This document shows, in pieces, positions 36,860 to 53,202 of a stretch of 59,586 nucleotides of DNA. Position numbers and translations under genes: made by a program. The first letter of the stretch is position 1. Each line of letters begins with the position of its first letter. Below the pieces are notes generated by a model. The model was not told where the DNA came from, did not search any database, and saw nothing but the letters and a program-made list of their open reading frames with translations. The stretch lies in contig NZ_RYFF01000020.1 in assembly GCF_004138165.1 (NCBI RefSeq), positions 33,982 to 93,567 on the forward strand, read 5' to 3'. Source of the DNA: Candidatus Chloroploca sp. Khr17. Its GTDB lineage: Bacteria > Chloroflexota > Chloroflexia > Chloroflexales > Chloroflexaceae.

Positions 36860-36931
36860 TCCTCGCCTGGCAAAAACGTGCGGTTAATTCCACCACAACT
36901 GACTACAGATAAGAATACATAAGCGTACAAA

Positions 36932-37735: not shown

Positions 37736-37748
37736 AGGCTTACTCCTA

Positions 37749-38390
37749 TTACGGTATCTGACGAATTTCCACATTTTTACGCTTCGCGGCTGTAATACGC
37801 TGCTTGATTATCGCATTTTGTTCAGGTGTGGTGTTCTTTGGCTTTGGAACCGCGACAACAAGATTGCTATTCTTGCTGGATAAAGCGTTTAATTCGGGAT
37901 TTTTATTTGATTTAAACTTCTTGTCCTTATAAGATTTGACTTGTGATATCTTTCTGTTGAGATTTTTTTGATCAACACCAGCGATACCCTTTACCGGTCG
38001 ATAATTTTCAATCAATTCAAATTTAAATTTTTTCGGATCAGTACTCCGCTTTAGCACCCTAAGTGTGTCAACACGTTTTCTATTCTCAAGTGCTACTTCA
38101 GAGAAAACATCTCCGCGCTTAATTTGCTTATAGTTTGGCGGTGTTTTTCCCTGCAAAGTAGTTGCAGACTTCGGTTTGCGATTGTGTAATTTTGCATGGT
38201 AATTTGTGGAGATTTTGTTGAATTTATGTCCATTAGCTGTATTTCGCCGCAGTTGTGTTCGCTTAAGCTCATTTGACGAAGAGACATTGCGTGCGGCAGC
38301 TTTCATTTTTGTTTTGGAGATCGGAACGGAGATGCTACTTCTATTTACTTTGGGTGTGCCATGCGTAGATTTGCTGCCAACTTTTTTCAT
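37749..38390 (-). CDS. Island operon gene 12: extremely basic Lys/Asn/Arg-rich protein of unknown function. It is the lowest-GC gene in the window.
   Basis: SD 'aggggtg' before ATG 38390. 213 aa dominated by K/N/R/S/T ('KKFKFELIENYRPVKG', 'KSYKDKKFKSNKNPE'). In the 60-nt line starting at 37861 I count 18 G+C. Confidence 0.7.
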   Translation of the reverse strand: MKKVGSKSTHGTPKVNRSSISVPISKTKMKAAARNVSSSNELKRTQLRRNTANGHKFNKISTNYHAKLHNRKPKSATTLQGKTPPNYKQIKRGDVFSEVALENRKRVDTLRVLKRSTDPKKFKFELIENYRPVKGIAGVDQKNLNRKISQVKSYKDKKFKSNKNPELNALSSKNSNLVVAVPKPKNTTPEQNAIIKQRITAAKRKNVEIRQIP

Positions 38391-38410
38391 TTCACACCCC
38401 TATACATTCA

Positions 38411-38977
38411 TTACTTCTTACGCACAATCTTTGGTCTGCCCTGGAAACGTCCGAGCCGCCGCGCCTGTTCGATATGCTGTTCGTTGCGCTCTTGCATCTG
38501 TGCAGCTTCAAAATCGCGCAGGATCTCGTCGGGTTTCTGTAGTGGTTCGGCATGGGGCATAAACATGCTGCTGAGTGCTGCCAACCCCACGAGACCATCA
38601 ACTGTCTTCACCGCAGTGTAGGCTTTGGCCTGATTGAACTTGCCTTTGAACCAATTTAGTTTAGATATTTGATTCGGTGTGGGGGATTTTGGCTGATTCG
38701 AGCCACGAACAGTAGGGTGCTGCAGACCTCCTCGCACGTTGCGTGTTGGCAACGTACTGCTTGGCTTCGCCTTAACTTGTTTTAGTGGTGGCGTCCGAAC
38801 CTTTGATGTTGGGTGCTTCGCCAGTTTGCGTGTCGCTTGCTGCAACTTGACTGGTGTAACCCGCTGCCGGGCGGTTGTTGAAGCAACTGGTTGTAGAGCA
38901 CGTACTGGCGGCGTAGGCTTTGGGGTATTGGGGTTGCTCACACCTGCCCCACTTTTAGTACTCCGATTAACCTTCAT
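38411..38977 (-). CDS. Island operon gene 11: basic Pro/Thr/Lys/Arg-rich protein of unknown function.
   Basis: ATG 38977-38975 overlaps the TGA 38976-38974 of the upstream ATPase gene (ATGA coupling). The N-terminal ~110 aa are low-complexity and basic ('KPTPPVRALQ...KHPTSKVRTPPLKQVKAKP'). The C-terminus is helical ('DEILRDFEAAQMQERNEQHIEQARRLG'). Confidence 0.65.
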   Translation of the reverse strand: MKVNRSTKSGAGVSNPNTPKPTPPVRALQPVASTTARQRVTPVKLQQATRKLAKHPTSKVRTPPLKQVKAKPSSTLPTRNVRGGLQHPTVRGSNQPKSPTPNQISKLNWFKGKFNQAKAYTAVKTVDGLVGLAALSSMFMPHAEPLQKPDEILRDFEAAQMQERNEQHIEQARRLGRFQGRPKIVRKK

Positions 38978-41787
38978 GCGCCTGCTCCAATCAACATTTG
39001 CAGCACCTGGGCATCTACGGGTAAGCCCGAGTTGCGCATCCAATCAGCAGCCAAACGCAGGTAGACCCGTCGCACTTCGGCGTAGCGCGGGTGCGCACCA
39101 AATCGTGCCGTACAGATCTGCTCAATCTGGGTATGGTCCAGGGCACGATCTCCATAGCCCCCCAGAACATCTTCAATCGTTTCAGGCAAGCTATACCCAT
39201 CTTGTGCAAGCACCCACTTAGCTGCGGCATGGGGATCGTCCGGTAGGATGCTAACGGTCTGCACTTGGTTTGGCATCGGTGGCTGCCAGAGCGCCGCTGG
39301 CGGCATCTGCAACGGGCGGCGGGCCATCATCGCCTTCACGGCCTCATCGGAGTCATCAAAGATCGGGCGATCATCGGGCGTCTGAAAACGATCCAGGTAG
39401 TTGCCAACCTGCACGAAGATCGGGCGACTATCGGGGCCTCGTACAATCACTTGGCCCTGCCCGAGTGAGCGTACGTATTCGCGCTGACGCTCATTCAGGT
39501 TCATCACCTCACAGAAGAGCTTAAAGCTCTCCTGATCTTCGAGCCGATGCATGATTTTGAGGTTCGTATTGCCTAGCGCACCATTGACCAGTTGGGTTGG
39601 GATCTGCTCAGCGATCAAGATCCCTTCCCCAAACCCGCGCACCTCAGCCAAAATATTGGCGAAATCCTCTCCACCACGACTCCGTGCGTCAGCAAGATCT
39701 TCGCTACCCTTGTGTCCAGCCGACATAAGCCGATGGGCTTCTTCGATCAGAGTCATGTGCAGTTGTTTGCCGCGTTGTTCGGGTGGGAGGCGTTTGTAGC
39801 GGCTCTGCAATTCTTGGGTCAGTTGTACCAACAAAAAGGCCATAATCAGGGCGCTATCTTCGGGGGAGCCAACCCTTCCTAATTCCATGACGGTTGGCCG
39901 TGAGAGCACTACACTGAGCGGGGCTGGAGCCGTGGTATTGACAATTGTCCCTGCATTGAGCAGAAGATCACGCATGCGAATTTCGGCTGATTGGCGTACC
40001 CGGTCTTTGGCCTCCTCATCAAAGCCCGCCGTCATCAACTCGCTCACCGCAACGAGCGTCGTGTAGAACGCAGCCAAGGTGGGGGTGCCTACCCCCGGAT
40101 CGCCCCCCTTGCCCTGTTCGAGATTCCAACCTGCATCGGTATAGACCTGACGCAGGGCTGCGCGATAAATCGCTGGCAGAGGATCCCACATCGAGAAGGC
40201 GGCCATAAAACAGCGCATCAACAAACTGAGATGGGTCTTAAGCAAGATCCCCTCTGCCACGTAGAAGGGGTTGAAGCGGAAAGGCGTGGTGGTTTCATCA
40301 CCCAGCGTAAAAATTAGCAGATCGTCGGCCATTTGTGGGTCGGCCATGAGTAGCCGATAGTCCGGTTTGTCAATTGGGTACATCACCAGGAATGGTACCT
40401 GGTGGTCGGCCCAAAGTTGGGCCAGCATGTGCAGGCATGTGTTAGTTTTACCGCTTCCCGTAGCCCCTGCGATGAGACCGTGGCGGTTAAGGTCACGGAT
40501 CGGAATTTGCATATACTGGCCAGTACGCGTGCCACGATGGATGATCTCACCGAGGTTCAAACAGGGCACGTTGGTGAGCAGGCGATCGGTTGGCAAAACG
40601 AATGGCTCGTCGCGTACCTCAAGCCCGGGTAGATAACCACTCTCGGGGGGGATCGGCAGACGGAAGGCCCCCGCCGCTTGGTCGGTACTGACGAGATAGC
40701 GCAAGCGTACTGTCGCCTGATCAACGCGTGTTGGCCCCCAGGCTCCGTACTCAAGAAACGCAAAGTTATAACGTGCAATCGCCAGATCTTGATCATCCTT
40801 AGGGCTTTCGCTGGCCCATTGACGTGGCTCCGGCGTATTGTTTTGAATCAACTCGGAACCCAGCGCTTCCATTACATCATTAGGTGCATAATCCGATCCT
40901 ATCACTTGGATTTTTATGCGGAATAAATGATTTCTTTTGTTGATCAGAGGCATAAAGGTACGGGAAATATCATCAAAGCGTTCACGGCGATACAAATCAA
41001 ACCATGATTTGGACTCAACTTCTGCTGTGAGATTGCGATAACGTGAGAGCAGTAAGTTAATCTGGAGTAGCTCTTCGTGGAAGAGCACTGTTGGTCGCAA
41101 GCAGATGCTTGCGACACAGGTTTGCTCTTGTTGCACCAGCGTTTCTAAGAAGCGGCCAAAAGCAGAAGCATCAAAAACTGGACTAAAGGGATGTGGGAAG
41201 TAGCCAATGGCATCAGTACCTGCGTATGGATCAAAATCCTCAAACTTGCGAATCTCGACCAATTGGTTCATGCCTACCTGTTCAATGGGAATAGGTAACA
41301 TTGAACGCATGAAGTCGTCTTCGCCTAACGGCTCTAATGGGTAGTTGAAAGGATCTTCGAGAGGGTAGTGACTACGAAACTTGCACCAGAGCTGCCAGCA
41401 CAGATTTTTGGCGCGATTGCGGTTGGGATGGAAAGCCTTGCCAAGAAAGACAATCTCAATGGTTGGGCGATGTCCTGTCACTTGACTTGGTCGAGCAATA
41501 AACCGCAGATCGAAGGCGGCACTACCCTCGGCAATCATCCGAGCGTTGATCAAATCATTCAGGAAGCGGATTTGACGCAGCGTAATCAACCGAATACGAC
41601 TCAGTTCACCTCCACTGAGCGTACGCGTGAAATCGCTGGTTAAAAAACTAGGAATGAACGGCACCCGTGCTGCAAAGATAGCGTGCGCCCCCTGCTGGCG
41701 AGTGACTTGCACCCCACTACCCCCCCAACTCTCGGCATAGTGGAACTCATCGGGATTGCTGACGTAGATGAACGGCTCTTGCAACAT
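38974..41787 (-). CDS. Island operon gene 10: HerA/FtsK-superfamily (DUF87-like) P-loop ATPase with a ~430-aa N-terminal domain of unknown function.
   Basis: SD 'aggaagg' lies 8 nt before ATG 41787. Walker A 'GLIAGATGSGKTN' at 40444-40467. Walker B/sensor 'LHMTLIEEAHRL'. 'ILIAEQIPTQL...NTNLKIMHRL' is typical of HerA-like NTPases. Confidence 0.75.
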   Translation of the reverse strand: MLQEPFIYVSNPDEFHYAESWGGSGVQVTRQQGAHAIFAARVPFIPSFLTSDFTRTLSGGELSRIRLITLRQIRFLNDLINARMIAEGSAAFDLRFIARPSQVTGHRPTIEIVFLGKAFHPNRNRAKNLCWQLWCKFRSHYPLEDPFNYPLEPLGEDDFMRSMLPIPIEQVGMNQLVEIRKFEDFDPYAGTDAIGYFPHPFSPVFDASAFGRFLETLVQQEQTCVASICLRPTVLFHEELLQINLLLSRYRNLTAEVESKSWFDLYRRERFDDISRTFMPLINKRNHLFRIKIQVIGSDYAPNDVMEALGSELIQNNTPEPRQWASESPKDDQDLAIARYNFAFLEYGAWGPTRVDQATVRLRYLVSTDQAAGAFRLPIPPESGYLPGLEVRDEPFVLPTDRLLTNVPCLNLGEIIHRGTRTGQYMQIPIRDLNRHGLIAGATGSGKTNTCLHMLAQLWADHQVPFLVMYPIDKPDYRLLMADPQMADDLLIFTLGDETTTPFRFNPFYVAEGILLKTHLSLLMRCFMAAFSMWDPLPAIYRAALRQVYTDAGWNLEQGKGGDPGVGTPTLAAFYTTLVAVSELMTAGFDEEAKDRVRQSAEIRMRDLLLNAGTIVNTTAPAPLSVVLSRPTVMELGRVGSPEDSALIMAFLLVQLTQELQSRYKRLPPEQRGKQLHMTLIEEAHRLMSAGHKGSEDLADARSRGGEDFANILAEVRGFGEGILIAEQIPTQLVNGALGNTNLKIMHRLEDQESFKLFCEVMNLNERQREYVRSLGQGQVIVRGPDSRPIFVQVGNYLDRFQTPDDRPIFDDSDEAVKAMMARRPLQMPPAALWQPPMPNQVQTVSILPDDPHAAAKWVLAQDGYSLPETIEDVLGGYGDRALDHTQIEQICTARFGAHPRYAEVRRVYLRLAADWMRNSGLPVDAQVLQMLIGAGA

Positions 41788-41806: not shown

Positions 41807-43195
41807 CTAAGCGTAAGCGGTCATAACGGCTTCGACCAGCACAAGTAGATCGCACTGGGGCGTCCAGTTAGCGAGCGGTTCAGGCATGAAGCGCTGCTCT
41901 TGTCCATCGAACTCTACAAACATAGTTGGAGCCTCTTGGGGATACCGAGCCGTACAACTAAAATAGATGCCGAGGGTGTGCCCAAGCTGATCACGCAGGC
42001 TGACACTGACCAGGAAGACGTTCGCATCTTCGTGTAGGGCGGCGTTTAGTCCCTGTGCTAGCATTGCGCCTATCTCGTTGCGCAGGCGTTCGCCAGCACC
42101 TGCGCCGCTGAAGCGTGCGACGGGTGACGGTAAAGCGGGAACAGTCACACCATACATCCCTCCGAGAGTAGCTGTAGGTGGGGCTACGGCCTGTCCGGTG
42201 AGCGCCCCAAGCAACACCTGTTGAAGGTCATTGCTACCTGCCGCCGATGTCCCCATCGGCAGCATCCCCGCCTTCGCCATCTCGGTCAGGGCCAGTAAGC
42301 GTTGTCCATCTGTTTGCGCTTTATCACCAAAGACACGCGTGTACATGTCTGGATTGGTCAGCAAGAGATATTGCGGTGTCAATTCAATCATGCGCGAGAT
42401 ATTCATCTGTGTGAGCGCCTGTGCCATCGCAATCTCGGCCTGCGAGTTCGCCTGGATCTTCGCGACCTCGGCATCAGTTTGCGCCTCGCGGGTACGCATA
42501 TAAACGTCACGTAATTTCTTGTCCAGTTCTTCAGCACCCGCAATACGCGTGATCTGGACGTTCGAGACTCGTATTCCCAAGTTGTCTTCAATGCCGCGTT
42601 GCTGCAATTGCTGTGCAACCATGTAACCTGCATGACCGCCCGCCTGGAAATCCTGGTATTTAGCAATTGATGCAGTGATCGAACGAATTGATTCCATCAC
42701 CGTATCATAGAGCCTCGTGAGCGGCTGTTCGACGACAAGCGCAACGTGTTCAGGATGAATTATCTGATAACTGACTGCAACATCGAGATCAACTGGCAAT
42801 GCAATCTTCTCACCCTGGGGCGGCTGATAGAAAATCGTAAACTCCTTCGTCGTTGTTATATCCAGCGTGCGCTCACGCGTATTGACCACGTAGAGATCAA
42901 TGCGATTCATCACGGGAAACGAGAGCGCGTGATAACTCCCTTCTTGCAGCACTTCGAGCACTCTGCCATCCCCGGTCACAACGACGGTAGTGCCAGCCAT
43001 AACCCGAAAGATACGAAAGATACTGGTGAAGACATTGTTATGAACACGTACTGGACCAAAGACAAGGGGTGAATTACTTAGATCAGCAAACGGTTCACGC
43101 AGGAAGTCATCAAGCGAGCCCTGTCTGCTCGCTGCTTCCTTATCGTTAACGTGACGACGGTTTAGGGGCATGGTCTGGTCACGGTTAGTTCCCAT
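41807..43195 (-). CDS. Island operon gene 9: SPFH/Band-7 (flotillin/prohibitin-like) domain fused to a C-terminal UEV/RWD-like (non-catalytic E2-fold) domain.
   Basis: ATG 43195 follows 'ggaaggag'. The SPFH-like core runs from 'VVVTGDGRVLEVLQEGSYHA...' through 'VDLDVAVSYQIIHPEHVALVV' and 'GIRVSNVQITRI' to a coiled-coil 'AQTDAEVAKIQANSQAEIAMAQA'. C-terminus 'LGIYFSCTARYPQEAPTMFVEF...NWTPQCDLLVLVEAV'. Confidence 0.7.
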   Translation of the reverse strand: MGTNRDQTMPLNRRHVNDKEAASRQGSLDDFLREPFADLSNSPLVFGPVRVHNNVFTSIFRIFRVMAGTTVVVTGDGRVLEVLQEGSYHALSFPVMNRIDLYVVNTRERTLDITTTKEFTIFYQPPQGEKIALPVDLDVAVSYQIIHPEHVALVVEQPLTRLYDTVMESIRSITASIAKYQDFQAGGHAGYMVAQQLQQRGIEDNLGIRVSNVQITRIAGAEELDKKLRDVYMRTREAQTDAEVAKIQANSQAEIAMAQALTQMNISRMIELTPQYLLLTNPDMYTRVFGDKAQTDGQRLLALTEMAKAGMLPMGTSAAGSNDLQQVLLGALTGQAVAPPTATLGGMYGVTVPALPSPVARFSGAGAGERLRNEIGAMLAQGLNAALHEDANVFLVSVSLRDQLGHTLGIYFSCTARYPQEAPTMFVEFDGQEQRFMPEPLANWTPQCDLLVLVEAVMTAYA

Positions 43196-43229
43196 ACGAG
43201 CCAACTCCTTCCTGAGGCGCACAAGGTTG

Positions 43230-44453
43230 TTAGGTTTGATTGGGTAATATGCTAAGCTGAATGACCGGAAGATCAGCCAAGATGTCCGAAGCTTCGGCGG
43301 CTGCTTCTTGTTCACTCATCTTGAGGCTTTCGGCTACGAAAGCTGAATAGTTGCACACCGGACATTGAGCATTCTTCGGCACATCAATGAAGAGGCTCTC
43401 TAACGGCTGTTGAAAGATCCACTCCGCACGATTACCGAAGAGGAGCCAGTTCGTCGGCAGATCCGGTAGCGTGTTCTGCTTATCGCGCAGAAGCGTTAGT
43501 AACGCCATACGCGCCATTAACAGCGCAATCATACCCACATCAACCCCTAGACCTGGCTGAGCCAGTAATTCTTCCATACGTGCGGGATCTTCGTAACCCA
43601 GCGAGAAATCCTGTGTAGCGGCAGGGGGAGGGCCAAAAAAATCGGCAATGACGGTCTGAAAACAGGCGTAGCAAGCACCCTCGGAGGGAATTGCACGGAA
43701 GATATCACCCCCAAAGGCGCGATTGTAGGCTGCGGCATAGATAGCCGGGATCCCTCTTGGCCAGCACACGGTATTGACCGCCAACTTTGAGTCTTCATGA
43801 TCAGTAGCGACCACAACCAGATCACACCCGGTAACAATGGTAGCTAGTTGATCCTCATGGCCTAACACGTTCAACTCGTAGGTCTCGACGGTAATTGCGG
43901 GCGAGATGTCGTAGAGCAGATCGCGCAGGGCACGGGTCTTATAGCGCCCGATATCGTGGAGGCCACACGCATGACGTGCAATATTGTGAACTTTGAGCCG
44001 ATCAAAATCCACCAACCGCATCTGCCCTACTCCGCAACGAGCAAGCTGGCTCGCCACCACTGAACCACCTGAGCCGAGGCCAATCACGGCAATGCACGTA
44101 TTGGCGAGGCTGCTCACTTCAAAGATGCCGTGCATACGTGAGGCATAGTCAGTATGCAAACGGATGACGTTGCAGGAAATCGTTTCCCATCCAGTAGCCT
44201 TGCTTTGCCAACCAGCAACCTGATCTGGCAACTCATCGTCAATGTTGAGGACTATTTCTTCCGGGGCCAGTTCTGTTGTTGGCGGTACAGGGCTGCGATA
44301 CCAGCGACCTAGGTACGCACCGGACGCCTCAAGGATTCCCCTGATTTGCACGACATCGCCATCGTCATAACGGTAGCCGTAGAGCTTGCCCTCTGTCTGT
44401 GCAGCAGTACCAAGCAACTGGTTAATCAAGCTATCAGGAACGGTAAGAAACAT
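43230..44453 (-). CDS. Island operon gene 8: ThiF/MoeB/E1-like adenylyltransferase with an N-terminal degenerate JAB-like segment.
   Basis: SD 'ggag' lies between the upstream TAG and ATG 44453. Rossmann motif 'IAVIGLGSGGS' at 44061-44081. 'RLVDFDRLKVHNIARH' is the E1 Arg-finger/Asp region. 'GACYACF'. The N-terminal 115 aa align by eye to the two JAB proteins, but with HKH replaced by YRS. Confidence 0.8.
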   Translation of the reverse strand: MFLTVPDSLINQLLGTAAQTEGKLYGYRYDDGDVVQIRGILEASGAYLGRWYRSPVPPTTELAPEEIVLNIDDELPDQVAGWQSKATGWETISCNVIRLHTDYASRMHGIFEVSSLANTCIAVIGLGSGGSVVASQLARCGVGQMRLVDFDRLKVHNIARHACGLHDIGRYKTRALRDLLYDISPAITVETYELNVLGHEDQLATIVTGCDLVVVATDHEDSKLAVNTVCWPRGIPAIYAAAYNRAFGGDIFRAIPSEGACYACFQTVIADFFGPPPAATQDFSLGYEDPARMEELLAQPGLGVDVGMIALLMARMALLTLLRDKQNTLPDLPTNWLLFGNRAEWIFQQPLESLFIDVPKNAQCPVCNYSAFVAESLKMSEQEAAAEASDILADLPVIQLSILPNQT

Positions 44454-44464
44454 CGGCAGACTCC

Positions 44465-45865
44465 CTATTGCAGTGGCTTCCCTTGATCTGGTTGAACCGA
44501 TGTTGGAAATACATAGCTGCGGTTGAACTCAGCGCAGAGGTCAGCCGCACTACGACAGGCCAGTTCAACTTGACGTACGATCAGACGACCTTGAAATTCG
44601 AGCAACTCACCAATGCGCTGGGATGGACGTGGTTGGGTCAAGGTTTCAAGCACATTGCGCACTACATCACGTAGGCGTATATGGGTACGCCAACCACCAG
44701 GAAAGAGTTGTTCAGTCACAATACGTACTACGTTATCATCACTCAACACGACTTGGACTTCAGGCGCTTGCTGCGGAAACTGTGAACCAGGATCAAGCTT
44801 AATAGCTTTGATCTGTAGCGGCTCTGTTTGCGCAACTGGCGCGACATTTACCATCCCCTCCGGCGTTTGCTGGGGTGCTGGGATTATCTCAGGGATATTC
44901 AGGGTCATTAGGGGCGGATGCGTAAAGGTAATCGTATACCAAACTCCGTTATCATCGCGCGTATGTACCTCCAGATGCGCCCCAGATCGCAAGGTCTGGC
45001 AGTACTGTTCCAGATCCTGTTGTTCGCGTGCAAAGCGGCCAGGAAGGGGAGGGATTGGCGGAATGCTTGCATCAGGTGGTGAACCTGAGAAAGGTGGTAT
45101 TTCAGGCGGCACGAAATCAGTCGCTGAACGACGAGTGTAAGAGGAACTTTCTAGATCGATGACCTCCAGGGTATCAGGAGGTTCCACATCTAGTGTGTAA
45201 GGTGAGGTATGTGGCTGCACCGGAGGATGGGAATGCAGATTGGCCCGGGCAGCACGGAGATCGGCCGGGTTGACTCCCCAGCGATCAGCAGTTCCTGATG
45301 TTGCGTGAGGAGGTTTTGGCGCAACTGTCTGTTGTTCTAGCGCAACCAGACCATCCAACAAGACGCGAAGGTCGCCTTCGACAAGCTCACATGGCACAGG
45401 CGTCGCACTCATCGTCTCACGGGGATAGTAGTGCCCATGGAGCAGAAATGTACCATCTTCAATGGTTACAAGTGGGGTGAAGATACCGTGGGGCAAATGA
45501 TAGGACTCATCGCTCAAGATATCGACCACCTGAAGCGTATCACCCGAACTTGGCCGATGCAAACCTGGCGGATGCTTATGCCACTCACCAACATAATCAA
45601 CGTGGTAGGTGGCGTAGTGCTGACGCCACGTTTCCAGGTCGCGTTGGCGAGCAAGTGCATCTGGAGCATAGGTATGCGCCCGTCGGTCGGCATTGCTACC
45701 AGGACCAGAGGCTGCCACAACGACGAGGTGGAGTCCATCGGGGAGTTGGAACATACGTCCAACCAGGATGCCGCCGGTCTCACGTCCAGGGCTCGTACAT
45801 GCCTCGTCGTACATCCGCTGATAGACATCTTGTTGGGCCAGATAGACGGTATTTGGTACTGGCAT
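44465..45865 (-). CDS. Island operon gene 7: JAB/MPN+ (JAMM) metallopeptidase fused to a C-terminal UEV/RWD-like domain.
   Basis: ATG 45865 lies one nt after the E2 stop codon (TAA 45869-45867). 'ETGGILVG'. An intact JAMM motif 'HKHPPGLHRPSSGD' (H-x-H-x7-S-x2-D) at 45539-45580. C-terminus 'IKAIKLDPGSQFPQQAPEVQVVL...GGWRTHIRLRDVVRNVL'. Confidence 0.85.
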   Translation of the reverse strand: MPVPNTVYLAQQDVYQRMYDEACTSPGRETGGILVGRMFQLPDGLHLVVVAASGPGSNADRRAHTYAPDALARQRDLETWRQHYATYHVDYVGEWHKHPPGLHRPSSGDTLQVVDILSDESYHLPHGIFTPLVTIEDGTFLLHGHYYPRETMSATPVPCELVEGDLRVLLDGLVALEQQTVAPKPPHATSGTADRWGVNPADLRAARANLHSHPPVQPHTSPYTLDVEPPDTLEVIDLESSSYTRRSATDFVPPEIPPFSGSPPDASIPPIPPLPGRFAREQQDLEQYCQTLRSGAHLEVHTRDDNGVWYTITFTHPPLMTLNIPEIIPAPQQTPEGMVNVAPVAQTEPLQIKAIKLDPGSQFPQQAPEVQVVLSDDNVVRIVTEQLFPGGWRTHIRLRDVVRNVLETLTQPRPSQRIGELLEFQGRLIVRQVELACRSAADLCAEFNRSYVFPTSVQPDQGKPLQ

Positions 45866-45866
45866 G

Positions 45867-46322
45867 TTAGTCTGCCTCAATTCCAGGCCAATAGGTTTTC
45901 CCTGACTCAAGCCAGGTTTCGTAGGCAAAGAACCAAGCGGCGGCTACCGCGATCACGGTTGCTGCCGTGGTTTGCTGGGCAAACGAACGATCACCAGGGT
46001 AGTAGAGGCATAGGTGTCCATCGTTATACTGGTGCTTGAGGCGGCCTGCTTGCTCGTCCTTCCAGACGGTAATCGCTGGGTTAATGGGATAAACTTTAGG
46101 CGGATCATCGGGAAAGTTGTCAGGATAGTAGAGTGCAATCTCATAGCGCCTTTCGCGATTACTCTCTAAGGTGCCGATCCAGACCAACTGGTTACTATCA
46201 CGCACGAGCTGAAACTGGGGAAAGCGCGTTTCCATAGCTCTCTTTTCCAGTACGAGTCGTGCGGGATTAAGGTCATACCACGCTGCATACCAGCGCATCG
46301 GACGGAGAATAGTTTGGCCCAT
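45867..46322 (-). CDS. Island operon gene 6: E2/UBC-like ubiquitin-conjugating-type enzyme with a candidate catalytic Cys.
   Basis: 'YEIALYYPDNFPDDPPKVYPINP' is the E2 flap motif (46098-46115). 'KHQYNDGHLCLYYPG' has the Cys codon at 46008-46010 (H..N..G.lC, as in E2 HPN...C). A C-terminal helix 'TVIAVAAAWFFAY' follows. Confidence 0.8.
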   Translation of the reverse strand: MGQTILRPMRWYAAWYDLNPARLVLEKRAMETRFPQFQLVRDSNQLVWIGTLESNRERRYEIALYYPDNFPDDPPKVYPINPAITVWKDEQAGRLKHQYNDGHLCLYYPGDRSFAQQTTAATVIAVAAAWFFAYETWLESGKTYWPGIEAD

Positions 46323-46387
46323 CGTAACTACCCTTATTCGTTGCTGCTTAACAGTGCTTTAGATGTCTATGTCCACAAGTGGATCGT

Positions 46388-46588
46388 TTATGCTCGTGTA
46401 AATAGGGCAAACCAGCGCTGCGGTTTAAGCACTGTCTTGCTCTGTGGATCGGTCTGCGCGACCTTGGGATCTTCTGGGACGTGCATCTTGCCATCCGGAC
46501 TGACGACAACTTCCTGTGCGGTGGCAAGACGCTTCTTAAGTTCTTCCAGGCTGGATTGTGGGCTACGAGGGGGTTGTGGCGTGCTCAT
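46388..46588 (-). CDS. Island operon gene 5: 66-aa hypothetical protein, probably disordered, occupying the position where a Ubl gene would be expected.
   Basis: ATG 46588 is preceded by a strong SD ('caggaggtacaccaccATG'). Sequence: MSTPQPPRSPQSSLEELKKRLATAQEVVVSPDGKMHVPEDPKVAQTDPQSKTVLKPQRWFALFTRA. There is no C-terminal Gly and no obvious beta-grasp pattern. Confidence 0.55.
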   Translation of the reverse strand: MSTPQPPRSPQSSLEELKKRLATAQEVVVSPDGKMHVPEDPKVAQTDPQSKTVLKPQRWFALFTRA

Positions 46589-46640
46589 GGTGGTGTACCT
46601 CCTGGGATTTGCTGACACGACTGGTATACGTACAAGGGAA

Positions 46641-47357
46641 TTAGATAATACGTTCGGTATATTGTGCCCAAACCGACTGTTGCGTCGGTGGCTGGTTCGT
46701 GACTTGAGCATAAGAAATGAGGCCCAAAAGGTTGTTGACCACTGCCAGCAGTGAACTATTGCCATTCCAACTGCGCAGAACAGACGAATCAAGTGCGAGG
46801 TGATGTTCGGCTAGTTCACCACAGGCATCAAACCCGAGCATGGTGGCAATGAGCTGCGGTGCGATAATTGGATAGTCATCCGTACAAATGAGATGGATCG
46901 AGACATTCTCCCCATCACTCCGTGCCACCCGGATCTGAACACAGTACTCTTCGACATCCGGGCGCCCGGCGAGGCTCACCGCCTCGTAACCATTACTGCG
47001 TAACTTCGCTACTTCTTGCGTCAAACGTTGCACCACATTTATTGGGGTAACATCAATCACTTGGCGACTTGCAACTGGGGTTCCGGCTGGTGTAAAACCA
47101 CCCGCGCCGGAACTCCAGGTTGGTACCTGCGATGAAAGCGTCGAAGTGTCTTCATGGATTGGCATTGGAGGCGGGCGCATGGTGGGACTAGCCGGTGGGA
47201 GAATGAACGCTTTACCCTGTTTTGATGTTACTTCTGATTGGCTCGTTGTGGCGCGTCGCCCACTCCCGCCTCGTTGGAGTACGAAGACAACGAGGATCAG
47301 GACGACGAGAACGAGGACGCCCCCACCAGCAATGATCAGCAGAATTGATGTATCCAA
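46641..47357 (-). CDS. Island operon gene 4: N-terminal TM anchor, Pro-rich linker and UEV/RWD-like domain.
   Basis: TTG start at 47357 follows GGAGG, which overlaps the upstream TAG ('TAGGAGGcgtcTTG'). TM 'ILLIIAGGGVLVLVVLILVVFVL'. 'VSIHLICTDDYPIIAPQLIATM...SWNGNSSLLAVVNNLL'. Confidence 0.7.
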   Translation of the reverse strand: MDTSILLIIAGGGVLVLVVLILVVFVLQRGGSGRRATTSQSEVTSKQGKAFILPPASPTMRPPPMPIHEDTSTLSSQVPTWSSGAGGFTPAGTPVASRQVIDVTPINVVQRLTQEVAKLRSNGYEAVSLAGRPDVEEYCVQIRVARSDGENVSIHLICTDDYPIIAPQLIATMLGFDACGELAEHHLALDSSVLRSWNGNSSLLAVVNNLLGLISYAQVTNQPPTQQSVWAQYTERII

Positions 47358-47365
47358 GACGCCTC

Positions 47366-49150
47366 CTAGCGGGGTATGATGCGTACCAGATAAGTCGCAC
47401 TGGTACTCAGATCCAGGTTCGCTTCGCCTACCATCGGCAATTCCGCCAGGCTCAGCAAGTAACGTCCACTGGGTAGGGCCGCACTCGCGACACCTGTCTG
47501 ATCAGTCACGATCTGGCGATTGCCGCTCGATCCCACAAGGTTGAGTACCAGATTAGAGGTAGGTGCAATAATCAGCAGATTGACCGGATCGCCATTGATC
47601 TGCGTTGCGAGACGACGATCCGTAAGCAAACGCGTCCATTCAGATGCATCGAGTCGGGTTGTAATGATTTGATAGGCACTCGTGCTTGCAAGCAAAGCTT
47701 CGGCTTCGCGCTTGAGTTGGCGCGCACTTTCCCCACGATCCTCTGCAACCTGAGCAAGGCTAAGTGCGGCGTTGGCCTGAGCGAGCGCGTCGGTGCCAAC
47801 TGTCCCGCCGCGTTCGAGCAAGGCTAGACCGTAACCGACATAAGAATCGTAGAGCCACTGCTCGACGGTGCGTACCGCAGGGTCGCTTGTGTTAGGCCTT
47901 AATTGCACGGCCTGTTCAAGTTCGCTGATCAGGGCGGGCCATGTAGCGACACTTGCATCGCGGAATTGTGTCGCCCGTGCAATCCACTTCAAACGATCAG
48001 CTAGTCCTTCAAGATCTTGCTCCAGAGTTGCAGCAAGTACATAATGCTCGTGAGACTCAATGACATCCGTGGCAAAGAGGAGGTCACCCCATGCCAGCTG
48101 GGCTTGTGCCAAGCGGGTCTTGACGCCTATCGCTGCTTCAGGACTCTGCGCTTCAGGGTGGAGAACATGGATCTGTTCAAGCAGGGCTACTACTTGTGCC
48201 CAACTTGCCGTGGTATTCACTGCCCATAGTTGCTCGGCCTCAGTCCAGAGCGTCTTCGTCCGGGCTTCGATAACAGCAACTAGTCCAGCCTGAGCATCAG
48301 AGGAGGCTGGATCAAGCGCGAGAGCCTGGCGAAACATGGCTTCCGCCTGATCAAGTTGGTTCGCTTCGAGGAGTGCGGACGCATAACGCTCATAGGCGGT
48401 GATGAGCGGGATTGGATTGGCAACCAGGCTACCGCAACTACCACCCACCCCGCTCTGACCACGGTTGTGCATTGCTTCGAGGGTATGGGTTACTTGCGCG
48501 AGGGATTCGCGATCACCGACTGCATAGGCTTGAGCCACGAACTGCTGCTCGGAAGCGCACGGATCGTAGAGCAAGGTATAGTAGAGTAGCAACCCCCCGG
48601 CAATGAGCAGGGTGACACCTCCACCTACCACGGCTAAGATCTTCCCTGTGGCGGAACGACGCGTTGGGGTAGGAAGGGGACGTTCTTCACGAGGTGGCAA
48701 CTCCTTAGGGAATGGCACATCAAGTGGTGGCATGGGGGCCACCGGTTCAGCAATGCGTGCAAGCCGTAGATTGGAACTCTGTACGCTGTCCTGGACTTCC
48801 AGAACGATTTCGTAGAGCATCTGGCGACTCGACCAACTGAGACGGGTTTTTGACTCGACATCAATCGGGAGTTCTTGTAACTCGCCGTAGCTTGTTGTGC
48901 CGGGTGTGGTCACGGTGACCACAAGATTGGGCGCCGTAGCTGGAAAATTTGCATCAAGCTGGAAGTAGAGATGCACCGGCTGTGGCCCTTCGTGCGTGTC
49001 ACGAACCAACTCTACTGTTAAGTAGTAGCGCTGAGCACTCGCGTCCTGCTGGAGGTCGCAAGCATAGCCCATATCACGGATGGCCTTGACCTCTTGACCA
49101 ATGCGCTCAGCGTGACTTTGGTCAGCGGCCATGGGGGGGAGGGATGACAT
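47366..49150 (-). CDS. Island operon gene 3: UEV/RWD-like domain, TM, helical (TPR-like) repeats and a C-terminal CarboxypepD_reg-like beta-sandwich.
   Basis: 'PVHLYFQLDANFPATAPNLVVTV...SWSSRQMLYEIVLEV'. TM 'ILAVVGGGVTLLIAGGLLLYYTLLY'. Repeats 'SWAQVVALLEQIHVLHP' and 'TWPALISELEQAVQLRP'. C-terminus 'DQTGVASAALPSGRYLLSL'. Confidence 0.75.
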   Translation of the reverse strand: MSSLPPMAADQSHAERIGQEVKAIRDMGYACDLQQDASAQRYYLTVELVRDTHEGPQPVHLYFQLDANFPATAPNLVVTVTTPGTTSYGELQELPIDVESKTRLSWSSRQMLYEIVLEVQDSVQSSNLRLARIAEPVAPMPPLDVPFPKELPPREERPLPTPTRRSATGKILAVVGGGVTLLIAGGLLLYYTLLYDPCASEQQFVAQAYAVGDRESLAQVTHTLEAMHNRGQSGVGGSCGSLVANPIPLITAYERYASALLEANQLDQAEAMFRQALALDPASSDAQAGLVAVIEARTKTLWTEAEQLWAVNTTASWAQVVALLEQIHVLHPEAQSPEAAIGVKTRLAQAQLAWGDLLFATDVIESHEHYVLAATLEQDLEGLADRLKWIARATQFRDASVATWPALISELEQAVQLRPNTSDPAVRTVEQWLYDSYVGYGLALLERGGTVGTDALAQANAALSLAQVAEDRGESARQLKREAEALLASTSAYQIITTRLDASEWTRLLTDRRLATQINGDPVNLLIIAPTSNLVLNLVGSSGNRQIVTDQTGVASAALPSGRYLLSLAELPMVGEANLDLSTSATYLVRIIPR

Positions 49151-49207
49151 AGCAACTACTCTCTTGTAAGCGACGCGAATGCCCAGCGTTGACGAGCCTT
49201 ACGAAAC

Positions 49208-50017
49208 TCAGATCCGGCCATAGAGATCAGTAACAATCGTTGCCAGACGACACGAACCGTCCCAGGGGAAGAAGATTCCGGAACCAATATTGAGCGAGGT
49301 GCCATGGCGCTCGACAACCACGGAAGGTGGTTGCTGAGGGTAAGTTGGCTCACACACCATATAGATCGTCGTCCCATCCTGTGGTCGGGTAACGGTTACG
49401 CAGCACGTGCCGTCTTGGAGGGTATTGATCTGGACGGTGCCAAATTGGGCCAGTGCTATGCGCTCACCAGCGATACGCTCGGCGAGATCCAAACTAGGAC
49501 GAGGTGTGGCTCCCCCTACCGTCTGGTGCGGGCTAGGTGGTGGATCAGGTGGTAGTAATGGCCCCGAACTACGTAGCCCAGCAGTAGGGGAGGCGTTCGT
49601 TCTAGCTATGAGTCCGCTCGTCCGGAGATTGCCGTCCGACCTAGAGGCTATAGTAGGCCCGCGGCCCATTGAACTGCCAAGCACGAGGCCAAGCAGTAGG
49701 CCGGGAGCTGTCCCAAGCAGCATTGCCACACTGTACATACGCAAACTCCCAAGGGCTAGTCCTAGATTATCGCTCAGCAGCATATTTAGGACACCACAAA
49801 GCAGCACAAAGACGAGCGCACTAGCTGCGGGGCCAACGAAGATCGCCCAGTGGTAACCTTGTGCGACACGCCCGCGTAAGAGTAGACCTCCACCCAGGCC
49901 CCCGATGATCAGCCCGATCATTGCCAGAGCTAGAACCACCAGCGGGTTCGTGCTGATCAATAGGCCCATGCCCAGGAAGAAGAGACAACTGACGATGATA
50001 ACCATTGCTGCAAGCAT
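49208..50017 (-). CDS. Island operon gene 2: 4-TM Gly-zipper membrane domain, Pro-rich linker and UEV/RWD-like domain.
   Basis: ATG 50017 lies 3 nt after the upstream TAA, with GGAGGA inside the last codons of the upstream gene. TM segments include 'GLIIGGLGGGLLL'. 'TTIYMVCEPTYPQQPPSVVVER...PWDGSCRLATIVTDLY'. Confidence 0.75.
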   Translation of the reverse strand: MLAAMVIIVSCLFFLGMGLLISTNPLVVLALAMIGLIIGGLGGGLLLRGRVAQGYHWAIFVGPAASALVFVLLCGVLNMLLSDNLGLALGSLRMYSVAMLLGTAPGLLLGLVLGSSMGRGPTIASRSDGNLRTSGLIARTNASPTAGLRSSGPLLPPDPPPSPHQTVGGATPRPSLDLAERIAGERIALAQFGTVQINTLQDGTCCVTVTRPQDGTTIYMVCEPTYPQQPPSVVVERHGTSLNIGSGIFFPWDGSCRLATIVTDLYGRI

Positions 50018-50020
50018 GGG

Positions 50021-52735
50021 TTATTCCTCCAGGCTAACAGTAATTTTGTAGTATTTCGATTTCTCGAAGCTAAACTCAATTGCTGTTGATCGAATTTTTG
50101 TTTCACCACCTACTGATTCCACTGTCAGTCTATTGCGGCCATCAATATTCATAAACTTAAAGCTTACACGAATTTCAGAATCTCCTCCTCTTAAAATTGC
50201 ATCACTAGGCCCTACGAGAAGTACATTAACATTTGGAGGCGGCGTTCCACCATTGGCTTCGGTCATCTCATTCTCTGAAATTTCACTAATTGCGATTCTA
50301 TATAGGGGCCATGTAGCTTCCTCAGCCGTTTGGGTTTGGGTTTGGGCTTGCGCCAGAGCCTCCGCTTGTGCGGTAGCAGCAACAGCAGAGGCTGTGGCTT
50401 CAGCATTAGCGGTGGCACTAGCAGCAGCAGCAGCAGCAGCAGTAGCGCTGGCCTGGGCCACAGCCGTGGTCGTTTGCGCCTGTGCGGTTGCGGCGGGGTT
50501 AGGTGTGGGGCGGGGTGTAGAGACATCAGCAGCCAAGGCACGATTAGCACTTTCCTTTAGCTTGGCAACTGTCTCTGCTGTCTCTGCTGTCTCTGCTGAG
50601 CTCGGCCTGACGGCTTCACTACCAAAGTCGTCGAGTTGCTCCAGCAAGCTTAATGCGTCTAAGACCGCACGCCAATCAGTACGATTGAGCGCCTCTTCAA
50701 CTTCAGACCATAACTCATCGGCCTGCGTCTGGGTAGTATTGGCATCATCAATGGACTGATCTAATGCATCATCACCACGCTCATTCGTACGCAAAAAATC
50801 TGCATTTACCCTGGCTTCATTGATCTGAGCCTGTGCATCGTCAAGCTTCCCATCCCGCCAGAGAGCACGGGCATATTTTAGGCGGGTCTCAGACTGGATT
50901 TTAGCCACGTCTGATATGCGTGGATCACCTCCTTGAAATGCAACAGGATCCGGTAAAAGGCCAGTAGTTGCTACAATTTCGTCAAGGATCCTCACCGCCT
51001 GTTGCCAATTACCATCGTCTACTGCTTTATCGTAGCTGGCCCACTCGGCCTCTAACCGCTGCACGTCACCAAGAGCATCAACAGCTTGACGGATCTCAGT
51101 ACGTAGTGCGCTGAGTTCCTCCTGTAAGGAGCGCGAGATTTGGCTGTCATTGCCTTCCGGCCAATTAGTAGATAACAGCGTTCGTGCCTCTACCAGTTTC
51201 TGTGCTTCCACGTTTTCAGTATCAATCTTTGTACGCACCTCGGCCATGAGCACTTTCACGAACCAATCGTTAGCTCGTTGCTTCGCTTCGTCATCCATAC
51301 TCAAAGCAGCACGCTGAGCCTGCTTCGCTACCTCGCGTGCGAGGTCGAACTCAGGTGGCTCAGCAGCAAGATAATCGTTGATTAACAGTAGGCGCGCATC
51401 ATGGATCAATTGCGTGATGTCGCGTCCTCGTGGGTCCGTAGTTTCACCTTCTTTAAGTCGTTCCTGTAACTTAGCAATGCGCTCTGAAAGCGAGAGGTTA
51501 GGATTATCTATTTCGATCCACATAGCGATGGCGGTCTGGGTTTGGGTAGCCTGAAGAGCAGCAGTCGCCGTTGCGTCGCTCGCTGTCTGATCCAGAGTTA
51601 AAGTTGCGCTAGGTGTCTGTTCGATCCCAGTCAATGGTTCCTGGCCCTGTGGTTGACCAACCTGCTCACCACTGGACCAGATCTGCCAACCGACAAAGCC
51701 AAATAAACCAAGCGCTACGAGTGATAAGGCCGCAACGAGAACAACAAAGCCTCCATTCTGGCGTTTCCTTGCCGCAGTTCTCGATGGCGGCGAAACCGGG
51801 CTAGGCGTTGATGGATGCACGACAGGAGCAATGGGCAGTGCAGCGGCGACGGGCATCGCACGAAGAACGCCCTCGACTACATCAACCAAGTGTGAATTGC
51901 CGTTATGATAGGTCCACTGGTTAATCACACCATCATCGTTCTGTGGCAACGCAGTGCCAGCCCGTTCAATGGCTACCAGGGCCGGTGGTACTCGTGGGAA
52001 GTCATTCGGGGCCATCAGATAGATCGTGAGATCAGGATGCTGGTTCGTGCGGACTTCAAAGAAGAAATTCGTATCTTGGCTCTTCAGCGTCACCTGATAG
52101 CCCCGCTCACGAAGCAAACGATGCTCTTCGCCAATACGATCATTGATCGGTGGGCTGCTTGCACCATCAGCTCGCTCGCGCTGGATCAGAGGATGCTCAT
52201 CATCAATTTCATGCACACGTGAAGCCTGAATTTCTACAAAAGGCTCACGCCGTTGCGCCATTTGGCGACTCATGTAGTAGTAACGGATGGTAAACTCACC
52301 GCGATCAACCCAGACAATCGGGTTAATGATCTCATTGATTTTATAGGCCGGATCGCGAAAGACGGCATGGGCAGTGGCGACATCACCCGCACTAAATGTC
52401 TGGTAACGTGCAGGATGTTTATGCCATGTGCCGATATAATCTGTTTTCGGGTAGCGGGCGTGATATTCTTGTAACTTACCGTTAACATAGTCAATGTCGG
52501 GATTAAATTCCACCGGATGGTGATACGCATTTTCACCCGGCCCAGTGGCTGCAATGATCAATAGCTGAACGATCTCTTCCCCATCAAGACGTCGTCCAAC
52601 CAGGATGCCCCCAGTCTCATTTTCCAAACTCGTTGTACTACCTCGCCGGGCTTCCTCTTCAATCAGGCGGCGGGCTGAACGCGTGATATAAATCTTACCA
52701 GGGAGCGGTGACTTCTGGGTACTGAGCTGTGACAT
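50021..52735 (-). CDS. Island operon gene 1: JAB/MPN+ metallopeptidase, UEV/RWD-like domain, TM, ~550-aa helical-repeat region and a C-terminal beta domain.
   Basis: SD 'ggagga' lies 5 nt before ATG 52735. 'ETGGILVG'. Intact JAMM 'HKHPARYQTFSAGD' at 52382-52423. 'LTIYLMAPNDFPRVPPALVAIE' with FPRVPP at 51983-52000. TM 'GGFVVLVAALSLVALGLFGFVGW'. Helical repeats ('NWQQAVRILDEIV', 'DWRAVLDALSLLEQL'), an Ala/Thr/Gln low-complexity stretch, and a beta-rich C-terminus. Confidence 0.8.
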   Translation of the reverse strand: MSQLSTQKSPLPGKIYITRSARRLIEEEARRGSTTSLENETGGILVGRRLDGEEIVQLLIIAATGPGENAYHHPVEFNPDIDYVNGKLQEYHARYPKTDYIGTWHKHPARYQTFSAGDVATAHAVFRDPAYKINEIINPIVWVDRGEFTIRYYYMSRQMAQRREPFVEIQASRVHEIDDEHPLIQRERADGASSPPINDRIGEEHRLLRERGYQVTLKSQDTNFFFEVRTNQHPDLTIYLMAPNDFPRVPPALVAIERAGTALPQNDDGVINQWTYHNGNSHLVDVVEGVLRAMPVAAALPIAPVVHPSTPSPVSPPSRTAARKRQNGGFVVLVAALSLVALGLFGFVGWQIWSSGEQVGQPQGQEPLTGIEQTPSATLTLDQTASDATATAALQATQTQTAIAMWIEIDNPNLSLSERIAKLQERLKEGETTDPRGRDITQLIHDARLLLINDYLAAEPPEFDLAREVAKQAQRAALSMDDEAKQRANDWFVKVLMAEVRTKIDTENVEAQKLVEARTLLSTNWPEGNDSQISRSLQEELSALRTEIRQAVDALGDVQRLEAEWASYDKAVDDGNWQQAVRILDEIVATTGLLPDPVAFQGGDPRISDVAKIQSETRLKYARALWRDGKLDDAQAQINEARVNADFLRTNERGDDALDQSIDDANTTQTQADELWSEVEEALNRTDWRAVLDALSLLEQLDDFGSEAVRPSSAETAETAETVAKLKESANRALAADVSTPRPTPNPAATAQAQTTTAVAQASATAAAAAAASATANAEATASAVAATAQAEALAQAQTQTQTAEEATWPLYRIAISEISENEMTEANGGTPPPNVNVLLVGPSDAILRGGDSEIRVSFKFMNIDGRNRLTVESVGGETKIRSTAIEFSFEKSKYYKITVSLEE

Positions 52736-53189: not shown

Positions 53190-53201
53190 GTATCATGATA
53201 C
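53190..53201 (+). promoter_or_regulatory. 12-bp perfect palindrome abutting the hicA start codon (candidate HicB operator).
   Basis: 'gtatcatgatac' at 53190-53201, with the ATG at 53203. Confidence 0.3.
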
Positions 53202-53202
53202 T

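Follow-up and report, generated by a model that had tools for sequence, protein, structure and literature searches.

A small protein with a conserved Trp-Phe end as the candidate non-beta-grasp modifier of an E1/E2/JAB operon in Chloroflexota

The closest described relatives of the system considered here are found among bacterial conjugation and defence operons. In cyclic oligonucleotide-based antiphage signalling systems (CBASS) of type II, for which our sources are Ledvina et al. (10.1101/2022.03.31.486616) and Jenson et al. (PMC10097602), the cyclase has a conserved, disordered C-terminus that Cap2 adenylates and conjugates, with Cap3 cutting after the last residue (10.1101/2022.03.31.486616). 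In E2-CBASS, which has neither E1 nor JAB and for which cyclase-E2 fusion genes exist (Xiao et al. 2026, PMC12948482; PDB 8hsb), a C-terminal helix and three-stranded sheet of the cyclase CdnG recruits the E2, and the terminal Gly is covalently linked to it; the adduct of this E2 and the cyclase tag is covalent and 1:1, and the E2 also removes a C-terminal green fluorescent protein fusion (PMC12948482). In types I and II of the BilABCD system (Chambers et al., PMC10557695), BilA is a beta-grasp ubiquitin-like protein (Ubl) that ends in Gly and is pre-processed at its C-terminus by the JAB peptidase, and the E1 of the system, BilD, is built from several domains, among them adenylation domains (inactive and active) and a mobile CYS domain (PMC10557695). 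Here, we analyzed a stretch of 59,586 nucleotides (nt) from contig NZ_RYFF01000020.1 of Candidatus Chloroploca sp. Khr17 (hereafter the window), in which a small open reading frame (ORF) of 66 codons is followed by genes for E2, JAB and E1 enzymes. We lean slightly towards the reading that this small ORF encodes the operon's own conjugatable, non-beta-grasp tag, which, by analogy with the systems above, would be trimmed and then activated by E1 and E2. What would be new is a conjugation system of the Cap2/Cap3 type with a mini-modifier that is dedicated to it and is not a beta-grasp, the covalent chemistry being argued from gene architecture and homology. A full-text literature search found neither the small protein nor this type of operon described; a mention in older comparative-genomics work is possible.

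A preliminary description of the locus, made from the sequence, had pointed out the order small ORF, E2, JAB and E1, and all four ORFs were indeed found in this order (5' to 3' on the minus strand) at the positions it gave. It had also left room for the 66-aa ORF not to be translated, and this ORF, whose product ends in KPQRWFALFTRA, proved to be a genuine gene under purifying selection. A ribosome-binding site precedes its start codon, and comparison with the copy in Oscillochloris gave a ratio of nonsynonymous to synonymous differences per site (pN/pS) of 0.148, at a pS of 0.75, which is close to saturation of the synonymous sites. The identical 66-aa protein has an NCBI record from Candidatus Chloroploca sp. 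Khr17 (P0064, 100% identity), in which it is annotated as hypothetical. An ORF of the same design was located immediately upstream of E2 in about 20 of the 23 related loci found in species-representative genomes, and the loci with such an ORF belong to many Chloroflexota, one cyanobacterial metagenome-assembled genome (MAG) and two Acidobacteriota; every complete related locus carries E1 and at least one JAB. When a profile of 12 members was searched against 1.84e9 cluster representatives, 49 proteins were matched at E<=1e-3, including 18 at E<=1e-10 (best 4e-27). Three of them, namely the repeat proteins without the motif P0130 and P0137 and the truncated fragment P0096, were set aside, leaving about 46. 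A chance ORF in an intergenic spacer might be suspected from the short length, the Pro/Gln/Ser-rich composition and the lack of any covering family model (none in Pfam, PADLOC or NCBIfam covers the protein), yet this explanation is refuted by the ribosome-binding site, the pN/pS value and the conservation across phyla, and we assign it practically no probability. Read-through or frameshifting that would join the small ORF to E2 was also ruled out, as the two genes lie in different frames and are separated by a 65-nt spacer with stops in all three frames.

Three parts are common to all members of the family, which we call units: an N-terminal helix with short strands (consensus L-x-x-L-K-x-x-L-x-x-A-x-x-V-x-V-x-x-x-G-x-L), a hypervariable linker whose sequence and length (10 to about 55 residues) vary freely, and a C-terminal heptapeptide ([VIL]-[KR]-P-[QTS]-R-W-[FY]). 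In the small protein of the window, invariant columns of residues 13-37 are L14, L17, K18, L21, A24, V27, V29 and G33. The strict form of the tail motif, KP.RW[FY], was present in 86 of the 94 motif copies counted, and a six-frame search found the motif just twice in the window, at the tail of the small protein and at the N-terminus of E2. In the small protein, the heptapeptide is followed by ALFTRA, in whose position the nearest relatives have SA, AR, VR, AF, VG or nothing. The end to be considered is Phe60 of ...KPQRWF, which is conserved, and not Ala66 of ...ALFTRA, the end given in the preliminary description.

A census of 90 non-redundant units further illustrates this end point. Fifty-two of them stop exactly at RW[F/Y], including the 1547-aa protein P0127 and all 25 full-length members of one Chloroflexota clade, while 29 bear unconserved tails of 1-25 aa that differ even among close relatives. 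The remaining nine run into another polypeptide, which is an E2 in seven cases, a coiled-coil/transmembrane (TM) protein in one and a CHAT protease in one; the fusions to E2 read ...KPxRWF-xx-WYE.... Moreover, three of the 90 are head-to-tail tandem repeats. In P0097, two diverged units occupy the slot of the small ORF within the order JAB-x-x-[di-unit]-E2-JAB-E1, an arrangement found on 12 contigs; P0138 likewise consists of two diverged units; and P0136 contains 2.3 units followed by E2, its copies being 97% identical at the DNA level. The genetics of the unit, with its tails, tandems and fusions, are those of ubiquitin precursors: ubiquitin genes encode polyubiquitin, fusion proteins and forms with one-residue tails. 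Fusions of prokaryotic Ubls to E2 are, for their part, released by JAB (Kaur et al. 2020, PMC7159879).

In a few loci, the unit is part of a much larger protein or lies far from Chloroflexota in taxonomy. In P0127, it forms the extreme C-terminus of an AAA_16 nucleoside triphosphatase (NTPase), whose gene is directly upstream of E2-E1; the logic is the same as that of the CBASS cyclase tail, with the unit at the end of a large protein. In locus L031, a unit is embedded between SPFH and CHAT domains, so that RWY is internal, and JAB cleavage after this internal RWY would split the SPFH-unit part from the protease. The same locus has a free 59-aa gene, recognised by size and position alone, in the unit's slot directly upstream of E2. 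A divergent 47-aa ORF ending in ...FKHQVWY was found at L025:318-461 on a contig of a Jordarchaeia (Asgard) MAG, and the E2-E1-JAB genes that directly follow it share 34-37% identity with those of the window; this occurrence could reflect an archaeal presence, a transfer or binning contamination. As for the surroundings of these unusual members, the region L031:4570-14171 additionally encodes two CHAT proteases (caspase-like) and has a Pepco-family gene as well as another Band_7 gene, and the P0136 gene (L030:163-5454) adjoins a WXG100-like gene and an FtsK/SpoIIIE ATPase gene, a setting that recalls type VII secretion loci.

The E2 of the window also bears on the history of the unit. It matches the PADLOC E2 model at 2e-24, and all 63 of its 63 homologues carry the Pfam family PF26395 (E2-CBASS). 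Its catalytic residue is Cys105 in HLCLYYP (nt 46008-46010), and H97 and C105 are invariant among the homologues. The closest solved structure is 8hsb_B, the E2 of E2-CBASS, with whose catalytic Cys it is aligned, and the E2 part of the model of a homologue (P0025) has a UBC fold according to Foldseek. At its N-terminus, this E2 carries the sequence RPMRWY, a copy of the unit's tail motif. Among 58 stand-alone E2s, 4 have such a copy in strict form and 13 in degenerate form, and 41 lack it. The simplest interpretation would be that a single gene, of the kind that some lineages still have, once encoded both unit and E2, with RPMRWY marking the ancestral fusion, and that after separation the motif was kept on the unit and has been decaying on the E2. 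Since the motif is near-invariant in the unit but decays in E2, selection appears to act on the unit's end.

Structure prediction suggests how the unit may interact with E2. An AlphaFold2 model of the natural unit-E2 fusion P0025, built from an alignment of 69 sequences, reached a predicted local distance difference test (pLDDT) score of 87.6 and a predicted template modelling score of 0.81. In this model, the unit comprises a helix (residues 3-19) and two-residue strands at 21-22, 24-25 and 31-32; residues 11-30 have a pLDDT of about 94, which would imply a fixed position on E2, and the linker and motif have values of 68-81. When the 66-aa protein of the window was modelled alone, a helix (10-23) and strands (27-29, 35-36 and 52-54) were predicted with moderate to low confidence (pLDDT 66), and a Foldseek search of PDB with this low-confidence model returned nothing below E=1.9 and no beta-grasp match. 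It seems from these models that the unit is neither a beta-grasp nor simply disordered, and that it resembles a small module whose folding takes place on a partner. The only hit of the unit profile among PDB sequences was the NEMO coiled coil (helix SLEDLKKQLQTAQ versus LEDLKQQLQQAEEAL, E about 0.01), which was judged to be a chance similarity.

These data have to be compared with what would be expected if the small protein were a non-covalent docking or regulatory domain of E2 that was split off by gene fission and never ligated, with RWF as the old boundary. Such an origin is compatible with the natural unit-E2 single chains of several lineages, with the docking of helix and hairpin on E2 in the fusion model and with the motif that some stand-alone E2s retain at their own N-terminus; N-terminal extensions of E2 enzymes that dock on E1 are also known, for example in UBC12. 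However, the most conserved element of the unit is its last seven residues, and the exact ends of 52 members as well as the tails of others would be left unexplained. The same is true of the head-to-tail repeats in P0097, P0138 and P0136, and of units placed at the C-terminus of a 1547-aa NTPase or between SPFH and CHAT domains. Furthermore, the existence of a separate unit goes along with decay of the E2's own motif copy, and E1 and JAB are strictly linked to the unit although no other substrate is encoded. We therefore consider a purely non-covalent role unlikely, if still worth taking seriously.

The enzymes encoded next to the unit were identified as a conjugation and deconjugation set, in agreement with the E2, JAB and E1 assignments made earlier, which are confirmed by matches to ThiF, Prok-JAB, PADLOC models and PF26395. 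The E1 matches ThiF at 5e-35 (Pfam) and Cap2-type E1-E2 at 6e-41 (PADLOC), and its best sequence matches in PDB are UBA5, MoeB, MccB and Cap2. It consists of an N-terminal domain of roughly 100 aa and a single ThiF-type adenylation domain (about residues 105-365, with ThiF itself at 115-328) with the motifs GLGxGG and D-x-D-R...N...R-H, a conserved Asp and two CxxC pairs. A possible assignment of the N-terminal domain as a degenerate JAB/MPN domain was dropped, as the hhalign alignment covered just 15 columns, with a probability of 35%. For the JAB protein, the matches are Prok-JAB at 2.5e-8 (Pfam), the PADLOC JAB model at 2e-15 and, below cut-off, NCBIfam Cap3 at 2e-7. In this protein, a JAMM peptidase (about residues 25-170) is joined by a Pro-rich linker to an RWD/inactive-E2-like domain at the C-terminus, and the GEWHKHP...SSGD motif aligns to PDB 9ild. 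The JAMM signature H-K-H-P...S-x-x-D is intact in this protein and in a second, 904-aa JAB protein encoded in the same operon.

No canonical modifier was found beside these enzymes. The window contains, in six frames, no ORF of 50-140 aa that ends in GG; none of nine operon products has a Gly or Gly-Gly C-terminus; and no ubiquitin-like family was detected in the operon proteins with Pfam (at E<=0.1), PADLOC or NCBIfam. In principle, the real modifier could be a canonical beta-grasp Ubl whose gene lies at another site in the genome or that forms a concealed part of a large operon protein, which would leave the small ORF an accessory role. The search covered the 59.6-kb window, and for the JAB protein of 904 aa and the N-terminal parts of the ATPase (400 aa) and of E1 (100 aa) the assessment was by sequence alone; bacteria also usually have ThiS and MoaD. 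However, besides the negative results for Ubl families and for GG-ending small ORFs, minimal relatives of the locus consist of unit-E2-E1 and JAB, with no room for a Ubl, and it is the unit, not any Ubl, that co-varies in architecture with E2. A Ubl of this kind is therefore very improbable.

With respect to the preliminary description, the absence of a Gly or Gly-Gly end and of a recognisable beta-grasp thus holds across the operon products. Its term 'Bil-like' is apt for the gene order but not for the enzymes, which belong to the lineage of CBASS Cap2/Cap3 and E2-CBASS, the E1 having one adenylation domain. Likewise, the comparison with a disordered, Pup-like tag suits the variable linker, but for the N-terminal third, folding and docking on E2 are predicted. 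Three origins of the modifier had been offered, and a blend of two of them, an unconventional E1-activated tag and a trimmed precursor, is favoured by the conserved KPxRW[F/Y], the 52 exact ends of 90, the tails, the tandems and the E2 fusions. There is no need for the third, a modifier from another place in the genome, given that the small gene accompanies E2 and E1 in different phyla.

Based on these features, a mechanism can be proposed. The tag would comprise about 55-60 residues, namely an E2-docking helix and sheet, a variable linker and a conserved tail with the reactive carboxylate. The unit would dock non-covalently on E2 via its helix and sheet, as in the fusion model, and the variable linker would let the tail reach the active sites. 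The window copy would be a precursor, from which ALFTRA (or, in other members, a fusion partner) would be clipped after Phe60, probably by one of the two JAMM/JAB peptidases, by analogy with Cap3, or alternatively by E2, as in E2-CBASS. The ThiF-type E1 would adenylate the carboxylate of Phe60, the tag would pass to Cys105 of E2 as a thioester and then to an amino group of a target, and JAB would reverse the linkage. Likely partners or targets within the operon would be the RWD/inactive-E2 proteins anchored in the membrane, its SPFH protein and its HerA/FtsK ATPase. Whether such units form a new class of E1/E2-conjugated modifier without a ubiquitin fold, that is, 'dock-and-reach' mini-proteins activated at Trp-Phe and representing a free-living form of the CBASS tail, is in our judgement evenly balanced.

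A number of points weigh against this proposal. The main objection is chemical and concerns the aromatic end: we know of no E1-dependent protein modifier that ends in a bulky aromatic residue, the characterised ones ending in Gly (Gly or Ala in CBASS). In Vibrio cholerae cGAS, replacement of the terminal Gly by Glu abolishes function. A precedent for a non-Gly peptide end is provided by MccB, a ThiF-type E1 that adenylates the C-terminus of a short non-Ubl peptide (MccA) with a non-Gly last residue. Secondly, no Cys was found in the E1 family between the first CxxC and P-x-L-x-x-D-V, the crossover segment that holds the reactive Cys of UBA5/MoeB, which makes an E1 thioester step uncertain. The Cap2 proteins of L027 and L028 also have no crossover Cys, so that its lack is uninformative. 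A near-invariant Cys in R-H-x-C-G is located beside the nucleotide site in the E1 family (the window's E1 and its orthologues in L002-L025). Thirdly, the case for conjugation is built from gene architecture and homology, and the predicted docking of the unit in the fusion model would fit a purely non-covalent subunit equally well. In addition, the unit has no detectable sequence similarity to the solved CdnG tails, and homology between it and the CdnG tag is thus unproven. Finally, P0136 is the weaker tandem case, because of the high DNA identity of its copies, and its repeat could be very recent or an assembly artefact.

A covalent bond might also be formed without any onward transfer, if the unit were linked only to E2, through a Cys thioester or a Lys isopeptide, as an on/off switch that is set and reset by E1 and JAB. 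The nearest solved E2 (8hsb) does form a covalent adduct with a cyclase tag, and the predicted layout of the unit is similar. However, E2-CBASS operates without E1 and JAB, whereas complete unit loci always have both, and systems with E1 and JAB (Cap2/Cap3) conjugate onward to targets. The region of SmE2 Lys159 has no counterpart here, as the window E2 ends a few residues past the aligned region, and the six RWD-like domains of the operon suggest further partners. Taken together, these arguments make a switch confined to E2 improbable, and transfer of the tag to other proteins is retained in the proposed mechanism.

The operon extends well beyond its four-gene core and spans about 35.6-52.7 kb of the window (Table 1). 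Four further genes are present upstream of the small ORF (for the 904-aa JAB protein and proteins of 269, 594 and 238 aa), and E1 is followed downstream by genes for an SPFH/Band-7 protein and a 937-aa HerA/FtsK ATPase and then by four more; Oscillochloris trichoides DG-6 has the same 17-kb arrangement. Judging from orthologue boundaries, the likely start of the SPFH protein is Met41 (about 43195). The HerA/FtsK ATPase and the SPFH protein co-occur in a subset of related loci (L006, L008, L010 and L012). This pair, together with the CHAT proteases of relatives, suggests a conflict system, and the whole operon is probably a conflict or defence module. The system is probably also associated with the membrane.

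Six RWD/inactive-E2-like domains were recognised in the operon (41807-52735) by cross-matching and alignment: they are distributed over both JAB proteins, the three membrane proteins and the SPFH protein. The Pfam RWD match of the 594-aa protein is below cut-off (E=0.003), the Oscillochloris orthologue of the 238-aa protein has a weak Pfam RWD match, and the RWD-like segment of the 904-aa JAB protein (residues 197-287) cross-matches other operon proteins. These domains could be adaptors, acceptors or E2 cofactors.

With regard to the four genes at the downstream end, the 210-aa, 280-aa and TPR genes were matched at the same relative position in Oscillochloris, where the 213-aa gene (37749-38390) has no match. 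Given this partial conservation and the fact that TPR relatives come after E1 in other loci too, they are possible accessory or effector candidates. The 213-aa gene shows a weak match, below cut-off (E=0.0015), to a restriction-endonuclease-like domain of contact-dependent growth inhibition (CDI) toxins. The G+C content is 47-48% at 36000-39000 of the window, where genes just downstream of the ATPase are located, versus 51-67% elsewhere. A scan of the operon for promoters and terminators was dropped as uninformative, since it gave fewer hits than shuffled sequence.

Table 1. Features of the operon, with positions in the window
Feature	Position	Strand	Remark
Second JAB protein, 904 aa: JAB, RWD-like domain, TM segment, long helical/low-complexity region	50021..52735	-	
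Membrane protein, 269 aa, with C-terminal RWD/inactive-E2-like domain	49208..50017	-	
594-aa protein: N-terminal RWD-like domain, TM segment, TPR repeats	47366..49150	-	Pfam
238-aa protein: TM segment, C-terminal RWD/inactive-E2-like domain	46641..47357	-	
Ribosome-binding site AGGAGG	46598..46603	-	9 nt upstream of the ATG at 46588; read from the sequence
Small ORF, 66 aa + stop	46388..46588	-	ATG at 46588, stop at 46388; proposed tag precursor (unit)
Residues 13-37 of the small protein (SLEELKKRLATAQEVVVSPDGKMHV), conserved helix and beta-hairpin	46478..46552	-	Proposed E2-docking module
Residues 54-60 (LKPQRWF), conserved C-terminal heptapeptide	46409..46429	-	Phe60 is the proposed mature C-terminus
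Residues 61-66 (ALFTRA), non-conserved tail	46391..46408	-	Proposed to be removed; compare the ubiquitin precursor tail
E2, 151 aa, UBC fold, Pfam PF26395 E2-CBASS	45867..46322	-	
RPMRWY, relic copy of the unit tail motif	46287..46304	-	N-terminus of E2, which starts MGQTILRPMRWY
JAB/JAMM protein	44465..45928	-	ATG at 45865 is the likelier start
E1, 407 aa, ThiF-type	43230..44453	-	
SPFH/Band-7 protein with C-terminal RWD-like domain	41807..43315	-	Band_7 2.5e-8 (Pfam)
HerA/FtsK-type P-loop ATPase, 937 aa	38974..41787	-	
Four downstream genes: 210, 213, 280 and 431 aa (the 431-aa one with TPR repeats)	35601..39043	-	

Several other features were observed in the window outside the operon. Just past it, a HicA-toxin-like ORF was detected at 53098-53469 on the plus strand (Pfam 3.9e-7), and farther on are an ECF-type sigma factor at 54153-54956 and a radical-SAM/SPASM protein at 57170-58513. 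Unlike the rest of the window, positions 28000-30000 have a strongly negative AT skew (-0.28 and -0.31), in a region with a plus-strand ORF of 594 aa (28246-30030).

To our knowledge, the cargo of characterised E1-E2 cascades is a beta-grasp protein or, in the case of CBASS, an entire enzyme, and the residue through which it is moved is always a small C-terminal one. If the proposal is true, E1 enzymes accept a wider chemistry, including a Trp-Phe end, and ubiquitin-style genetics, with precursor tails, polyproteins, fusions and a JAB for deconjugation, can arise for a protein of another fold. The unit would then be a model for how an E2-recruiting cyclase tail becomes an independent modifier, a candidate intermediate in E1-E2 evolution, and also a compact, natural, enzyme-ligatable tag. 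An uncharacterised multi-gene system is hereby defined in filamentous Chloroflexota, including Oscillochloris trichoides DG-6, for which a public genome assembly is available.

Comparison with other tagging systems places the locus among them as follows. Pup ends in GGQ or GGE, and its side-chain carboxylate is ligated by the glutamine-synthetase-like PafA, with no E1, E2 or JAB. The unit resembles it as a small, largely non-globular tag that folds on a partner, but ends in RWF, and no PafA/Dop-like domain was found in the operon proteins. The MccB/MccA pair, although the PDB 3h5n family is among the sequence matches of the E1, makes a nucleotide-peptide antibiotic and involves neither E2 nor JAB nor any protein conjugation. 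The Bub (6E/DUF6527) pathways reportedly use a poly-beta-grasp Ubl, Ser-based (oxyester) E1 and E2 enzymes and a Ser-His peptidase, whereas the window has an E2 with an invariant Cys, JAMM/JAB peptidases and no beta-grasp that could be found. With ubiquitin, the unit shares forms with short unconserved tails, head-to-tail repeats and fusions ahead of other proteins including E2; it differs in having about 55 aa, no beta-grasp, a disordered linker and an aromatic rather than a Gly-Gly end. The BilABCD operons have the same order of modifier, E2, JAB and E1, which is also seen in L001/L006, L007, L008, L010, L012 and L033, but the window unit has no beta-grasp and ends in Trp-Phe/Tyr, its E1 has a single adenylation domain and its E2 is of the CBASS type.

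The two CBASS types are the most instructive in this respect. E2-CBASS shares the E2 family PF26395, the catalytic Cys and the nearest structure (8hsb_B), and fusions to E2 occur in both; a helix with three short strands, recalling the CdnG tag, is predicted for the unit, though with no sequence similarity between the two. There, however, the tag is part of a cyclase and ends in Gly, whereas the unit is stand-alone, ends in Trp-Phe and always occurs with E1 and JAB. L027:8838-12092 and L028:3023-6247 are classical type II CBASS loci (CD-NTase, Cap2 and Cap3) that served as outgroups; their cyclases end in ...PKRPGKFA and ...PKKPGGYA, a basic-Pro...aromatic pattern that loosely recalls KPxRWF. 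The window system is not CBASS, because both a cyclase and a nucleotide-activated effector are absent: no model for a CD-NTase cyclase or for such an effector matched any of the 15 proteins scanned. What it has in common with type II CBASS is homologous E1, E2 and JAB enzymes, whose best PADLOC matches are CBASS models and whose JAB matches NCBIfam Cap3, and a substrate that is not a beta-grasp. In contrast to Cap2, which is an E2-E1 fusion, E1 and E2 of the window are separate genes. The tagged entity in CBASS is an enzyme whose tail ends in Gly or Ala, whereas here it would be a free protein of about 55 aa, or its tandems and fusions, ending in Phe or Tyr after a variable linker, and the operon around it adds multiple RWD-like proteins, an SPFH protein and a HerA/FtsK ATPase.

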